From a virus: DNA of 64,000 nt. The translations under genes were made by a program, and so were the position numbers. The stretch lies in IMG/VR virus record IMGVR_UViG_3300032246_003079; one strand, written 5' to 3'. This document shows positions 40,564-46,764 of the stretch, piece after piece. Within the stretch, counting starts at the first letter, position 1; each line of letters begins with the position of its first letter. The notes beneath the pieces are model-generated. The model saw only the letters and a list, made by a program, of their open reading frames with translations, did no database searches and had not been told where the DNA came from.

Positions 40564-42199
40564 TTAAAACTTTAATATATTCTTCTTTTATTTTTTTCGC
40601 CACTTCAATTGAGTCAAATTTACTAACATCTGTCGGTGGTGTATGTAATTTTTTATCTAAAATATAACCACTACTTTCAACATTGTAAATCCACCCAGGT
40701 TTATTACACATCCAACCTTCAATAGTTGTTCTTCCCAAAAGAATACCTGCAGTTTCAGAACAGTTTTTAACATACTGTTCAACTTTACTTGTCGCGTTAA
40801 AATGTTTTACGTGTGGATTTTTTAATAAATCATCCAAGTAATTTGATTTATTTTCACCAACTAACCATAATTCTTTATTAATTTCAGAGGAGTATGTAAC
40901 TAAATCTTTTATTGTATTTTCTCTTAAATAATCAATTGTCCCAACAAACAAAACGTAATTATCATTTTTAATATTATTTGAATTGAATCTTTTTGTGTCG
41001 ATTGGATTATAAATTACTTCAGTATTATTTTTATCGATATTAAATTTTTCGACAATATGGTTTTGTATCTCAGGACGAATGCAAATATATTTTTTAATTG
41101 AATCGTTAATAATTGGATTTTCTAATTCTATGACTTCAGAATGTATTGTTGATATTTTTGAAATATTAGGATACATCTGACACATTTGATTTGAAACGGG
41201 AGTGTGTTGAGTATGGATTATATCATAATTAACATCACCAATTTTGTACATTACATTTGGTTGTGTTGGTTGAAATCCTTGTGGTGTGTTAAATCCCCAC
41301 TTTCCATCTCCCATTTTGTAACCAGGAGCATCTTGAAATGAAACTACTTTGATTCCTTGTTGTTTTGCTAATTGAGATAAGGGTCCATTAATGTCTGAAA
41401 GTACCGTAACATCACAATTTAACTTTTTTAATCCTCTTGCTAATTCATAAACATACATTTCTGAACCTGTAAAAGTTTTAAAAAATAAACAAGACAATAA
41501 AACTTTTAAAGGTGAATCGATTGTAAGATTTCGTTTGATTTTAACGGGTAAAACATCTTTGAATTTTTCTGCAAACTCTTCTCTATTTTTTTCCCATTGT
41601 TCATTAGTCATTCCGATTGATTTATGCGTGACTCTAACATCATACATAACACCTATTTTAACATCTTCTAAATAATTTCTAAAAGAAAAATCTACATCGT
41701 AAAAGTGAAACCCTTTAACTTCTTCGTTAAAGTTGTGTTTAATATTTTTTTTATTAATTGCCATAAATAATCCATCTACCAACAATACGTCATCTAACTG
41801 ATTACCCTTACTTGTTGAATATTTTGACTCCCATTTTTTTCCTTCATGTTCATGATTAACAATTCCTTTAAGTTTTGAAAAATCTTCCCACCATTTACCA
41901 GAAGAAGGTAATGATGTTGAGCCCGCAACTCCAAGAATGCCGTAGTCAGAATTTCTTTTAAAATAATTCAAAACCTTTGATGCCCAATTCTTACTGTCAA
42001 AATAAATGTCGTGATGCATAAATACAACTATATCATATTTTGATTCTTTTAAACCTTTATTATAAATCTCGGTTAAAGAATATTCTCCGTTATTTTTATA
42101 TCCTAAAAATTCAATTTTATTATGTAAACCACTATTTTTAGTAGTTTCTTTTTTAAAATTTTCTAAATCGTATTGAGATGAGCAAACTACACTTATCAT
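40556..42199 (-). CDS. Bifunctional glycosyltransferase (GT2-like + GT4-like)
   Basis: YNKG..FMHHDI..DGLF..FHFYD N-half; TGSEMY..IYNPID..GRT.IE C-half. Confidence 0.85.
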   Translation of the reverse strand: MISVVCSSQYDLENFKKETTKNSGLHNKIEFLGYKNNGEYSLTEIYNKGLKESKYDIVVFMHHDIYFDSKNWASKVLNYFKRNSDYGILGVAGSTSLPSSGKWWEDFSKLKGIVNHEHEGKKWESKYSTSKGNQLDDVLLVDGLFMAINKKNIKHNFNEEVKGFHFYDVDFSFRNYLEDVKIGVMYDVRVTHKSIGMTNEQWEKNREEFAEKFKDVLPVKIKRNLTIDSPLKVLLSCLFFKTFTGSEMYVYELARGLKKLNCDVTVLSDINGPLSQLAKQQGIKVVSFQDAPGYKMGDGKWGFNTPQGFQPTQPNVMYKIGDVNYDIIHTQHTPVSNQMCQMYPNISKISTIHSEVIELENPIINDSIKKYICIRPEIQNHIVEKFNIDKNNTEVIYNPIDTKRFNSNNIKNDNYVLFVGTIDYLRENTIKDLVTYSSEINKELWLVGENKSNYLDDLLKNPHVKHFNATSKVEQYVKNCSETAGILLGRTTIEGWMCNKPGWIYNVESSGYILDKKLHTPPTDVSKFDSIEVAKKIKEEYIKVLND

Positions 42200-43029
42200 A
42201 TTTTATTTTGTTTTTTTAACTGTCTCACTTTATTATAAACAGAACTTAATTTCTTACCTAATTGTTTAGAACACTCAACAGAGGTTATCTTACCATAATT
42301 TTCAATTAAGAAATTTTCATCTTTTTTTGACCAAAATTTAATTGATTTTTCATTTATGTAATTAACTATGTCAATGTATTTTTTATATTTTCTACTAAAC
42401 CCAATGTTATCATAATCACAATATATGTAATCACATAATATTTTAACATCGTTTTTTTTATTAACTCTAAAATGTGAATACCCACCCATTTTAACAACCC
42501 AATTATTAATTATAAAATTAATGTTTAATTTGTTGCACAAATCAATCATAAAAGACCAATCTTGATTATATGGACCAGCAAAAACAACATCTATTCCATA
42601 TTTTTTACCTAATTTAATACATCCGTCACCATCTAAATACCCGCGAAACCAATGTTTTTTTAAGTCTTCAGGTATTGAGTGTAAAATTTTATTAGGGGAT
42701 GAATTTGATTTATTAGTATAATCGTTTTTTTTTAATATTTCAAATAACCCCCAAGTTGACGTTGATATTTTTTTTTGGTTTTTAACTTGTTTACCTTTAT
42801 GTGTTTTAATTATAGGTTTACTTATATTCCAATGACCCGTCTTTAAAAAAATATTAATAACGTCGTTTATGTCCGATTCGCTACAATTTATAGAAGTTAA
42901 CTTATGTTCTTCCCTAATATGACCATCTGCCCATAAAAGACCTAAGATATATGACGATTCTTTATTAAATTTATTTTCAAATAATGAAACATCCACCTTT
43001 TTTTTATTTTTATTTTCACCTTTATTCAT
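42196..43029 (-). mobile_element. Free-standing LAGLIDADG homing endonuclease with C-terminal HTH
   Basis: YILGLLWADG and FRGYLDGDG motifs; WS..D..FL C-terminal helix bundle. Confidence 0.88.
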
Positions 43030-43697: not shown

Positions 43698-44425
43698 TAT
43701 TTTAAACTTTTTAATTTTTTTATTGATTCAATCAAAACATCAACATCTTTTTCACAGTATTTTGCAATTTCATCAAGTCTACTCTGATTCCAATATGCCT
43801 GATGAACCATACCTCCATTTATTTCACCATCTTTTGGTGTTGGAATATCTAAACAAGAACACATTAAATCTAAAGAACCAATTGAACTATACGAACCATA
43901 TTGCCAAATTTCTTTGGTGTCAATCGCTTTCACTTCCCATGGTTTGGTGTCGTATGACGGAAGTATTTTTGATGGCATAATATTGTTAATAATCATACGT
44001 TTTGCCAACATAGGAATATCAAAGTTTTTTAAATTATGTCCACACAAATAAAAATCTAATTTGTGACAACGGTCTAATAAATTTCTAACTTCCAATAGCA
44101 AATCCTCTTCGTTGTCATTTTTAAAAGTTTGTTTTTTTACATCACCGTTTTCTAAAACAAATGCCATTGATACACAAACAATTTTAGCAAACTCTGGAAC
44201 AAGTGCCGCTCTTGAAGAATAAACATCATTCATTTTTTGAAGTTCTTCTTCAAGACCATTTGTCTCAACGTCATCTTCAGGAAATCGTTTTAAAAACCAA
44301 TCAAAGTATTTAACAAATTGTTCAGCAATTTTAGGGTGATTTTCTTGACAAGTCCGCCAATCCTTACATATACCAACAGTTTCAATGTCGATAAATAAAA
44401 TTTTGTTAATAGGTATGTTTATCAT
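43697..44425 (-). CDS. PolB-type 3'-5' exonuclease (stand-alone)
   Basis: IDIET, GHNLKNFD, YCEKDV (Exo I/II/III). Confidence 0.88.
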   Translation of the reverse strand: MINIPINKILFIDIETVGICKDWRTCQENHPKIAEQFVKYFDWFLKRFPEDDVETNGLEEELQKMNDVYSSRAALVPEFAKIVCVSMAFVLENGDVKKQTFKNDNEEDLLLEVRNLLDRCHKLDFYLCGHNLKNFDIPMLAKRMIINNIMPSKILPSYDTKPWEVKAIDTKEIWQYGSYSSIGSLDLMCSCLDIPTPKDGEINGGMVHQAYWNQSRLDEIAKYCEKDVDVLIESIKKLKSLK

Positions 44426-45682
44426 TTTATTAAAGATTTATAAAGTTCCGCTCTATTTTTTGTGACCACATTCAAATCATATGTGTCTTTCACCGTTTCA
44501 TACAATCGTTGTCCCAAGTCATAAGCAAAGTTAGGATTATCAATTAATTTTTTCATGTTTTTAGCCCAATCACTATGATTTTTTACTTCATCTACTAAAA
44601 GTGCGTTTCCGTCAGAGAATTGACCATTTTTTAATGCGTGTTTTAAATCAATAGTGTAGGGACCAACATTTGAAGCAATAATTGCTTTTTTGTAAAAACC
44701 AGCTTCAATAACTTTTAATTGCGACTTAACTCGGTTAAAAATATGATTTACAATCGGTGATAATGAAACGTCAAATAATCTATAATTTGAAGCATAACTT
44801 GTAACAGGTTTTGTCCAAACTCGATTGTAAAAAGGTTCAGACTCCATAATATATTCTGAATCCTCAAATTTTTTCAAATATTCAATATGTTGGGGGGAAA
44901 CCATTTTATAATTGTCAGTAAAAATTTCTTCATAACGAGCCCATACGGTTTCTTCTGGTCGTATTGGTCTTTGTTTTTGTTCTCCCGTTTCTTTATTAAT
45001 TTCAGTAACACTTCCTCTTGTATCAAAACCACATAAATACAATGAAAATTTGTCATGACTATCTTTTAATTTATTCGTAACGCCGCTTAACAATTTTAAA
45101 TCGTGTAAGTGAGAAGAACCACCCAACCATCCAAAACGAAGTTTATCTGACGGTTTTGTTTCATGGTTAAATTGAGCTTCTTTTGGATTAATTGCATTTG
45201 GAAGAACGTATACGTTTTTATTAATTTTAGATATTTCTGAAGCAAATAAAGATGTTGTTGTTGTTACATGTGCCGCCACTTTTAGATTTGCAACTATCTT
45301 TTGATTTATTTTGTTCTGTATGATTAGTTGATGAATTGGGTGCTCTTTAGTTGGCAACCAATAATCATCTAAATCCATAATTGTAATTACACCAATAGAA
45401 TTTAATGTTTGAATTAATTTATTGGATTGGTCAAAATCTTGACCAATTGACCTATGGAAATGTACAATGTCGTATTGTTTCCAATAGTTATAATCATTAA
45501 TTTTTGGGTCATAATCTATATCTATGTGAAATTCATCTGAGTGATTATTTTGTAACATTACGTGGGGGTCTACAGACCTAAATTTTCCTTTAAATTCAGC
45601 CAACTCCAGTACGGTCGCTAGGGACGCATAGAACCCTAATTTTTTTGCGAACGTCTGGAGTTGGATTGCTCTCTTGATTCAT
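44422..45682 (-). CDS. GT-B glycosyltransferase encoded in two frames: 45682-45599 (28 aa) and 45585-44422, separated by a 13-nt coding gap
   Basis: Segment 1 MNQ..KIRVLCVPSDRTGVG* joins segment 2 KFRSVDPH...; body has MDLDDYW, GWLGGSSH..DL, FNRVKSQLKVIEAG. Confidence 0.75.
45600..45664 (-). other. GC-rich 22-bp mRNA stem-loop ending at the putative take-off codon
   Basis: CCAACTCCAG/CTGGAGTTGG, ACG/CGT, TCGC/GCGA, TAGGG/CCCTA; 33 of 65 nt are G+C. Confidence 0.8.
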
Positions 45683-46037
45683 GTTTTTTTATTAAGTTAT
45701 TTATTATTTGTGGGTTTGATTTCAATTCAGACTCCCACACCACTTCAAAAAAATAACCATTACTTTTTATTAAGTCAATTTTATTATTATCATATTCCCA
45801 TAATTCTTGTGCGGTTTTTTTCTTTACTTGGTGATAATAACTTGCGTCGTATTTTTTTGGGTTACAATGCCAATAATCTCCATTATATTCAATAATTAAA
45901 TTTAATTTAGGTATATATATGTCACATATTTTTGTGTCAATTTTTAATGAATGTTTTACTTGGTAACCCATATTTTTTATTTCTTCCAATATTTCTTTCT
46001 CTTTTTTAGACCTATTAATTGATTTTATTTTTCCCAT
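45636..46037 (-). mobile_element. Free-standing Vsr/DUF559-like (EDxHD) endonuclease
   Basis: SK.E, D.YIP, IIEYNGDYWH, D..K, GY....VWE motifs. Confidence 0.8.
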
Positions 46038-46076
46038 AATATGATTAATAGTCCCGACCTATCAAAAGGTAATAAA

Positions 46077-46105
46077 ATAAAAAATCCACCTAAAATAGGT
46101 GGATT
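46077..46105 (-). terminator. Rho-independent terminator upstream of the endonuclease
   Basis: Minus strand AATCCACCTA-TTT-TAGGTGGATT plus T tract. Confidence 0.8.
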
Positions 46106-46128
46106 GCATTTTTTGATTTTATTTAAGG

Positions 46129-46764
46129 TTATTTTACTTTTTGAATTTTTGTAACTCTACCTAAAAATATGTGCTTACCAACTTTAAATTGGATTGATTC
46201 GTTAGCATCTTCAGATGATTCACTAATGACACCCGCATCTTGTAATTCTTCTCTAATAACATCTCTTACAACATCTCTTACCACATCTCTAATTATTGTT
46301 TTCATTTCATTCATGTTGAATTGTGATTGTGTGTTTTGAGTTGTTGTTTTGGTGTTTGATTTTGGTAATGATTCGGATGGTTGTGAGTTTTTATTCTCCA
46401 TCTTCATTAGTCTTTGAGCCCCCTCGATTATATCATCAGATATAGACGCACTTGACATAGTATTAGGTTGTACAATAGGTCTTTCAATCATTAATTTTTT
46501 AATTTCATCTGGTAGTTTTGAATTTAAAATTTTTGATTCTTCAATCGGTTTTGTTGGGTCGTAATTTGATTTTTGACTTGTCGACGGACTTTCAGACAAA
46601 AATTCTTGAGGTAAATTATACGTTGCTTGAGGAGTATTAAAACTCTCTAACATTGGTGCTGCATTAATATTTTGTGGAATTTCACCTCTTTTTATTGTGC
46701 TCTGTCTGTCCATAATTTTTTTGGACACGGCCAATCTTTGCATTAATTCTTCTGCTGATGACAT
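46129..46764 (-). CDS. Hypothetical protein
   Basis: 211-aa ORF with (RDVV)n repeat ending VIREEL. Confidence 0.7.
   Translation of the reverse strand: MSSAEELMQRLAVSKKIMDRQSTIKRGEIPQNINAAPMLESFNTPQATYNLPQEFLSESPSTSQKSNYDPTKPIEESKILNSKLPDEIKKLMIERPIVQPNTMSSASISDDIIEGAQRLMKMENKNSQPSESLPKSNTKTTTQNTQSQFNMNEMKTIIRDVVRDVVRDVIREELQDAGVISESSEDANESIQFKVGKHIFLGRVTKIQKVK

Follow-up and report, generated by a model that had tools for sequence, protein, structure and literature searches.

A mobile EDxHD-endonuclease cassette and a proposed ribosomal hop over a 13-nt gap in a phage glycosyltransferase gene

How can a phage gene be expressed when its most conserved motif is broken by a stop codon and a change of reading frame, and what placed the break there? 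This question is raised by a glycosyltransferase (GT) gene on a 64,000-nt stretch of viral DNA with 30% GC (IMG/VR record IMGVR_UViG_3300032246_003079; the whole stretch is called the window below). In this gene a recoded first exon and the GT body are separated by a 13-nt coding gap, and a nuclease open reading frame (ORF) lies on the upstream side. All features of the locus are on the minus strand, and coordinates are those of the window. An initial annotation, made from the sequence alone, had read the nuclease and the gap as a cassette paralleling T4 mobA and gene 60. Our analysis makes it quite probable, from comparison of sequences, that a mobile cassette bearing an EDxHD homing endonuclease occupies the region upstream of the GT gene and that the gap is crossed by a programmed ribosomal hop. 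The cassette would have exchanged the native 5' end of the GT gene for a recoded first exon of its own, with a short non-coding gap after it.

The start of the first exon overlaps the nuclease ORF by 47 nt, and the exon reads ...SDRTGVG before a TGA stop. The GT body, which opens KFRSVDPH..., lies in the +1 frame relative to it. The junction is made up, in order, of the take-off codon GGC, the UGA stop, seven bases with a second in-frame stop (UAA, 45592-45590), the landing codon GGA and the resume codon AAA. In intact homologues of 404 aa (95-98% identity) GVG is joined directly to KFR; therefore, the window carries a 13-nt insert between these codons. The gap is real and not an assembly error, since it is present in identical form on at least nine contigs from different metagenomes. 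Long ORFs of the window end in TGA, TAA and TAG alike, indicating a standard genetic code, and a reassigned stop codon was ruled out because each of the three stops is seen both opening gaps and terminating normal ORFs. The stop of the nuclease was likewise ruled out as the gap stop, as the nuclease is in another frame and terminates upstream: its stop codon (45638-45636) lies inside the long hairpin of the first exon, 38 nt from the gap. The end of the nuclease within a hairpin close to a 13-nt gap, as given in the initial annotation, was thereby confirmed. A self-splicing intron or intein was rejected, the interruption being just 13 nt long and the interval 45300-46300 containing no match to an Rfam family. 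A small AU-rich hairpin over the gap is real in the window and specific to its own lineage; it is not preserved in the sister allele L002 and was therefore left out of the core mechanism. A nucleotide search against deposited phages gave no match, and the best protein match was merely 35% identical.

Comparison with a cassette-free phage, L005, defined the boundaries of the cassette. The two sequences are collinear and 95-97% identical except for a 487-nt segment of the window, which substitutes for 146 nt of L005 comprising the intergenic spacer and the first 16 codons of the native gene. On its 3' side the cassette ends with the base preceding the landing codon, and the landing codon is L005's own Gly codon, the second Gly of GVG. 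The whole first exon has been recoded and cannot be aligned with the native first exon. Co-occurrence was then scored in a sample anchored on the GT gene, and thus unbiased, which contained 75 scorable loci: gap and nuclease occurred together in 11, the nuclease without a gap in two and neither in 62, while no locus had a gap without the nuclease (Fisher p = 1.6e-11). This check, put forward in the initial annotation, was strongly positive, with 11 of 11 gaps beside the nuclease and 0 of 62 nuclease-free alleles gapped. The gap was found only beside the nuclease or its remnants, with a single exception, L269. When gap state was mapped on the tree of GT bodies, at least 22 changes were required, 17 of them forced by well-supported branches, as against seven on the nuclease tree, indicating that the gap travels with the nuclease lineage over GT backgrounds. 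This scattered occurrence on the GT tree and the presence/absence polymorphism between near-identical genomes are indirect signs of possible homing. The suggestion that nuclease and gap move as a unit therefore holds on two grounds: they form one insertion polymorphism relative to L005, and the gap follows the nuclease tree rather than the GT tree. At 28 loci where nuclease homologues precede other genes no hop was found, and the downstream ORFs were plain where the downstream sequence sufficed.

For the comparative anatomy of the gap, loci from IMG/VR and from metagenomes were pooled, yielding 70 distinct gap-bearing alleles with 31 distinct gap strings. The insert always falls at the same codon boundary, inside the gene's most conserved motif. 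Gaps are 5, 6, 7, 8, 9, 10 or 13 nt long and all three frames occur, in-frame gaps being present in 47 of the 70 alleles. The first codon of the gap is a stop in every allele (TGA in 47, TAA in 20 and TAG in 3). The take-off codon is GGY or AGY in all 70, compared with a pyrimidine at this position in 36 of 67 gapless alleles (p = 2e-12). The codons for take-off and for landing match as Gly with Gly and Ser with Ser (p = 8e-8): Gly take-off codons are paired with Gly landing codons by 55 to 0, while the Ser (AGY) take-off codons land at AGY in eight alleles, GGC in six and AGA in one. Landing of AGY at GGC permits a G-U pair with U36 of the GCU anticodon. These matched codons, together with the covarying hairpin, the selection on both exons and the missing start codons described below, strongly support the view, already put forward in the initial annotation, that repair of the gene falls to the ribosome and not to an intron or intein.

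A second conserved element is a hairpin across most of the first exon. In the window its fold has a minimum free energy of -38.8 kcal/mol (z -3.8), with a basal stem of 10 perfect base pairs (45664-45655 with 45609-45600). The hairpin is present in all 70 gap-bearing alleles (mean -30.6 kcal/mol, z -4.7; 45% GC vs 30% in the genome), and its 3' end is placed from -2 to +5 relative to the take-off codon's first base; nothing comparable is seen in alleles that lack a gap, whether the nuclease is present or not (z about 0). The first exon is 26-28 codons long in every gap-bearing allele, as compared with 17-20 in gapless alleles. In the window the difference appears as an N-terminal extension of about 10 residues that is not present in gapless alleles. 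With regard to a nascent-peptide stimulator, a feature of the T4 bypass cassette, this extension is conserved, but it doubles as the code for the 5' arm of the hairpin, and its reading register drifts between clades. The register of the arms shifts by 1-2 nt between clades, which argues for selection on the structure rather than on the encoded peptide. Scoring was carried out on per-sequence folds and on an in-register subset of 28 sequences; in this subset 86% of cells pair, compared with 29-44% after sliding of the partner. Covariation scores 0.28; shuffles give 0.15, with none of 500 reaching the observed value, and slid controls give 0.02-0.10. One pair of the hairpin occurs in four Watson-Crick types, and covariation extends to the first base of the take-off codon itself, which is G in Gly codons and A in Ser codons, with C or U as its partner. 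RNAalifold run on the first MAFFT alignment did not recover the hairpin because of the drift of the arms.

Patterns of substitution indicate purifying selection on both exons. The reading frame is open in each of the 47 complete GT bodies, and close pairs give dN/dS values of 0.02-0.17. In the first exon, the last 16 codons have a dN/dS of 0.21, whereas the +1 frame gives 1.4, and switches between codon families occur at Ser, Arg and Leu positions; GT-like coding is kept in this exon across nuclease lineages only about 50% identical. The first 10 codons past the gap have a dN/dS of 0.32, and the motif xFRSxxPH is kept at the protein level. The intact GT of L005 was modelled with AlphaFold2 (AF2; predicted local distance difference test, pLDDT, 87.7), and a Foldseek search with the model returned GlgM, MshA, BshA, PimA and PglA (E 1e-13 to 1e-10). 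The GT also matches PHROG 7162, a glycosyltransferase (E 5e-46), and its Pfam matches are under their cutoffs. The product is thus predicted to be a GT4-like glycosyltransferase of the GT-B fold, with two Rossmann-like domains. In the L005 model the position of the break is in the first turn of helix alpha-1, directly after core strand beta-1.

We infer from these features that the gap is crossed by a hop of peptidyl-tRNA. The ribosome would translate the 28-codon first exon and pause with peptidyl-tRNA-Gly on GGC and the UGA stop in the A site. The tRNA would then unpair, the mRNA would slide by 13 nt, and the same tRNA would re-pair at GGA, with decoding restarting at AAA; the product would be one polypeptide containing the wild-type sequence ...TGVG-KFR.... 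At take-off the basal stem, including the take-off codon, would be held open inside the ribosome. The hairpin may subsequently re-zip behind the ribosome, pulling the mRNA forward, driving the hop and blocking return. This role is proposed by analogy with the 5'-stem model of gene 60, whereby the completed 5' stem pulls the mRNA forward (PMC5009743; bioRxiv 10.1101/2024.12.09.627546). The GT of the window would still be dependent on such a hop.

Several points weigh against this proposal or parts of it. In the window the landing codon GGA departs from the take-off codon GGC at the wobble position, so that two of the three bases would re-pair. Imperfect take-off and landing pairs, differing at the first or third base, occur in 7 of the 70 alleles: L113 and L229, and also L214, L218, L219, L225 and L235, with the pairs AGT to GGC, AGC to GGC and AGC to AGA. 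Such alleles constitute natural tests of mismatch tolerance in P-site re-pairing. With gaps of 5-9 nt, the full basal stem could re-form only very near the E-site side of the ribosome, making the geometry of the motor tight. The purifying selection on the GT body could in part be an echo of recent transfer of the cassette into functional alleles; conservation of the first exon escapes this objection because this exon travels with the cassette. Finally, gap, N-terminal extension and hairpin are all missing from 19 distinct alleles that bear the nuclease. The gap is therefore not required for coexistence of the nuclease with the GT gene, and other routes to coexistence must exist. Alleles of this kind (L003, L102, L050, L117-L125, L198, L236 and others) have a short first exon of native length. 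Two codons past the junction, their Arg is encoded by CGN more often than that of nuclease-free alleles, which may represent an alternative immunity change or a trace of co-conversion.

The nuclease was identified mainly by structure and by its relatives. Pfam gave only weak DUF559/MTES_1575 matches to the window copy, while a profile built from 16 relatives had I-Bth0305I (3r3p) as its best match in the Protein Data Bank (PDB; E 0.007). An AF2 model (pLDDT 88) had as its top Foldseek matches Vsr (1cw0 and 1vsr) and I-Bth0305I (3r3p), the latter with a template modelling (TM) score of 0.76 on the target, a root mean square deviation (rmsd) of 2.6 A, a probability of 1.00 and E about 1e-2. Residues E13, D39, N52, H57 and D83 are invariant across 16 diverse relatives and align with E170, D196, N208, H213 and D222 of I-Bth0305I, in which the roles of the residues of the composite EDxHD catalytic motif were defined (PMC3239194). 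Most relatives are 285-300 aa long and carry an HTH-like (helix-turn-helix) segment, a Cys4 ribbon (Zn-ribbon) and NUMOD3 ahead of the nuclease domain; NUMOD3 is over the Pfam cutoff in full-length relatives (27.3 and 24.7 bits vs 20.4). PHROGs groups the nuclease with homing endonucleases. The assignment to the Vsr-like EDxHD homing family made in the initial annotation thus finds support in the fold, in the five residues of the catalytic motif and in the NUMOD3 that full-length relatives carry. Its placing of the nuclease ORF after a terminator and its 47-nt overlap also stood; its description of the enzyme as compact did not, as the ORF corresponds to the C-terminal catalytic domain of a 285-300-aa enzyme.

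When the 133-aa window ORF was checked for an N-terminal DNA-binding region (NUMOD/HTH), none was present. On sequence grounds, the window nuclease is classed as a truncated EDxHD member, a remnant of the longer enzyme, and with its DNA-binding half missing it is probably incapable of acting as a site-specific enzyme. The window cassette is for this reason probably no longer autonomously mobile. Among the gap-bearing alleles the nuclease forms a decay series, from 285-300 aa to the 133 aa of the window, to remnants of about 50 aa and to no nuclease, the gap and the hairpin being kept throughout. The last state is seen in L269 (IMGVR_UViG_3300032293_001706), which has the gap, an intact first exon and the hairpin and has no detectable nuclease remnant upstream; this 'hit-and-run' state is comparable to that of some gene-60 relatives. 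A sigma-70-like promoter match (10/12) at 46065-46036 terminates at the start codon of the window nuclease, and the number of promoter-like matches in this region is no higher than expected from shuffles. The features of the locus are collected in Table 1.

Table 1. Features of the GT locus in the 64,000-nt window
Feature	Position	Strand	Remarks
Intrinsic-terminator-like hairpin of upstream gene	46083..46105	-	Cassette starts directly after its T-run; boundary from comparison with L005
487-nt cassette	45589..46075	-	By comparison with cassette-free phage L005
Nuclease ORF, 133 aa, Vsr-like/EDxHD catalytic domain only	45636..46037	-	Classed from sequence as a 5'-truncated remnant
Recoded GT first exon, 28 codons, ATG 45682 to take-off GGC	45599..45682	-	Stops at TGA 45598-45596
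Long hairpin across most of first exon	45600..45664	-	3' arm takes in the first two bases of the take-off codon
Take-off codon GGC (Gly)	45599..45601	-	
13-nt coding gap	45586..45598	-	UGA stop 45598-45596; landing codon GGA 45588-45586
Small AU-rich hairpin	45579..45598	-	Stop in 5' arm, landing codon in loop, resume codons in 3' arm
GT body, predicted GT-B fold, GT4-like	44422..45585	-	Resumes at AAA 45585-45583; coordinates include the stop codon

What the gap does for the cassette is a separate matter from how it is crossed. The gap may protect the GVG/KFR site against cutting by the nuclease, as had been suggested; this would fit the invariant position of the gap in the most conserved motif and the precedent of T4. 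It is rather unlikely that the hop is real while the gap is a junction scar or an anti-loss device, the nuclease cutting elsewhere or the recoded exon conferring the immunity. Such a view would accommodate the 19 gapless alleles, which are placed inside or beside gap-bearing nuclease clades, the recoding of the entire first exon, and the persistence of gap and hairpin after loss of the nuclease. Set against it are the fixation of the insert at one codon boundary in the most conserved motif, as would be expected of a target chosen for its conservation, and the finding that in T4 the bypass insert blocked MobA while polymorphisms alone did not (bioRxiv 10.1101/2022.08.31.505936).

In a different reading no hop takes place, and the locus is a split gene in which the 26-28-aa peptide and a separately initiated GT body assemble non-covalently. 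Such an arrangement has precedents in T4-like phages, in nrdA split by a homing endonuclease and in gp39/gp60. Split genes with added tails are known beside free-standing homing endonucleases (bioRxiv 10.1101/2022.08.31.505936), both pieces of the GT show purifying selection, and an in-frame TTG at 45603 offers a possible start for the body in the window and in L115. A split is nonetheless quite improbable, as an in-frame start (ATG, GTG or TTG) is lacking upstream of the resume codon in 64 of 69 alleles and within four codons downstream of it in all 69, yet xFRSxxPH is conserved. A split would also give no account of the match between take-off and landing codons, the constant first stop or the limit of 13 nt on the gap, and it would deprive a Rossmann-like domain of its core beta-1 strand and Gly loop.

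The gap might instead be translated, by readthrough where it is 6 or 9 nt long and by +1 or +2 frameshifting otherwise, adding 2-4 residues before KFR. The 47 in-frame alleles would suit this, as would a G-rich Shine-Dalgarno-like run 2 nt upstream of the take-off codon and the stop itself, since +1 shifts such as that of prfB are likewise stimulated when a stop occupies the A site. Three mechanisms would however be needed for one conserved architecture, and we regard translation of the gap as very improbable. A prfB-type +1 shift was rejected: GGC followed by U gives GCU, which allows no re-pairing, and the 5-, 6-, 8- and 9-nt gaps of relatives are irreparable by +1. A 1-nt indel in the gap (7 vs 8 nt) separates close sister alleles whose GT bodies are both intact, and neither the covariation of take-off and landing codons nor the strict GGY/AGY rule would be explained. 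Improvement by mutation of the stop to sense would be easy, yet it is seen in none of the 70 alleles, and the extra residues would fall in the first turn of helix alpha-1, beside the Gly loop.

That the cassette is a gene-killing parasite and the GT is inactivated, its frames looking intact only through recent invasion, is extremely improbable, for although the cassette is mobile and many invasions are possibly recent, its own first exon keeps GT-like coding across divergent nuclease lineages, every complete body is open, L001 and L002 share the 13-nt gap at a synonymous divergence (dS) of 0.63 with an omega of 0.05, and the conserved hairpin and matched codons would be left without a purpose. 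A frame-independent peptidyl-tRNA hop would explain all of these points, on several of which readthrough, a +1 or +2 shift, a split and a dead gene each fail.

To our knowledge, programmed translational bypassing in bacterial viruses has one example so far, T4 gene 60 with its homologues, all of them one gene. The GT cassette resembles the T4 gene 60/mobA arrangement in that a free-standing homing endonuclease and a coding gap at the 5' end of the downstream gene form one insertion, in the Gly take-off codon followed by a stop, and in the matched landing codon just before the resume codon. In both, N-terminal sequence is added from the cassette, the take-off residue can switch with the landing codon in step (Gly to Asp in gene 60, Gly to Ser in the GT family), and the nuclease decays or vanishes while the bypass stays. 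The differences are equally clear. The host gene encodes a GT4-like glycosyltransferase here and the large subunit of topoisomerase II in T4, the nuclease is Vsr-like EDxHD here and the HNH enzyme MobA in T4, and the gap is 5-13 nt in the GT family (13 in the window) as against 50 nt in T4. The T4 gap has a take-off stem-loop, whereas no stem-loop 3' of the take-off codon is conserved in the GT family. The take-off tRNA would be a G34 tRNA reading GGY or AGY, in contrast to tRNA-Gly UCC in T4; no tRNA genes were found within the 64-kb window.

A survey found gene-60 relatives exclusively in the topoisomerase gene, with the 5' stem-loop unconserved, and also reported Vsr-type nucleases beside gene-60-type cassettes (bioRxiv 10.1101/2022.08.31.505936). 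The GT cassette is analogous to the T4 cassette and not a member of that group. A second, unrelated origin of the same strategy, as claimed in the initial annotation, is plausible in view of the differences in gene, nuclease family and gap architecture; the occurrence of Vsr-type nucleases beside both kinds of cassette tempers the claim.

Other known systems share single aspects of the locus. A 2016 review describes the synthetic stop-hops of Weiss et al. (1987) in Escherichia coli, in which +5 and +6 hops were obtained in artificial constructs at low efficiency (PMC5009743). As in the GT hop proposed here, a stop lies between matched codons and the peptidyl-tRNA re-pairs a few nt downstream independently of frame; unlike these constructs, the GT arrangement is natural and deeply conserved, and it comes with a dedicated hairpin and a fixed-length first exon. 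The review stated that natural short stop-hops, including a natural in-frame stop-hop, were to be expected and that none was known (PMC5009743). The mitochondrial 'byp' elements of Magnusiomyces capitatus are 27-55 nt long and scattered through many mitochondrial genes; they differ from the GT cassette in having no linked nuclease and an unused sense codon in the A site, and in being apparently independent of mRNA context (PMC5009743). On the side of the nuclease, I-Bth0305I and the Hef-type EDxHD enzymes share with the cassette nuclease a Vsr-like fold, the E, D, x, H, D residues and a phage origin, and the full-length relatives are bipartite like I-Bth0305I, with an N-terminal NUMOD/HTH DNA-binding region (PMC3239194). 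I-Bth0305I has two NUMOD2 motifs and is the product of a group I intron within recA, whereas the GT-cassette nuclease is free-standing upstream of the GT gene and its relatives have NUMOD3 and a Zn-ribbon (PMC3239194). A search of the literature yielded no paper linking bypassing with a glycosyltransferase or describing the GT cassette.

The GT gene is a hotspot for mobile elements. In a divergent clade (L104-L112, L116, L208 and L225; for example L110:4445-6760) the upstream nuclease and hop cassette is accompanied by an in-frame insertion of about 375 aa in the GT, with a LAGLIDADG_3 domain near residue 160-190, giving a body ORF of 768-780 aa; judged from its sequence, this insertion looks like an intein. 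Elsewhere in the window, a free-standing LAGLIDADG ORF (42196-43029, minus strand) constitutes a second presence/absence cassette of about 1 kb that is missing from L005. Its 5' edge lies in the recoded last codons of the dUTPase gene and its 3' edge in the start of the next gene.

Taken together, the alleles fairly likely represent a natural and widespread family of stop-hops over 5-13 nt, with a spring-loaded 5' hairpin that includes the take-off codon, borne by EDxHD nucleases and independent of T4 gene 60. Public gene calls give gap-bearing GTs as truncated proteins of 378 or 393 aa, so recoded genes of this kind are systematically mis-annotated in metagenomes. The dozens of natural variants in gap length, codon pair and stem provide a ready-made mutational series for the mechanism of bypassing, and some 31 gap variants, the switch from Gly to Ser and the covarying 5' hairpin make the model of mRNA refolding as the motor directly testable. 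If the proposal is true, a homing endonuclease and translational bypass would have been joined in the GT cassette for a second time and independently, which would suggest that hopping is a general means by which mobile DNA can occupy a gene's most conserved part with neither intron nor intein.

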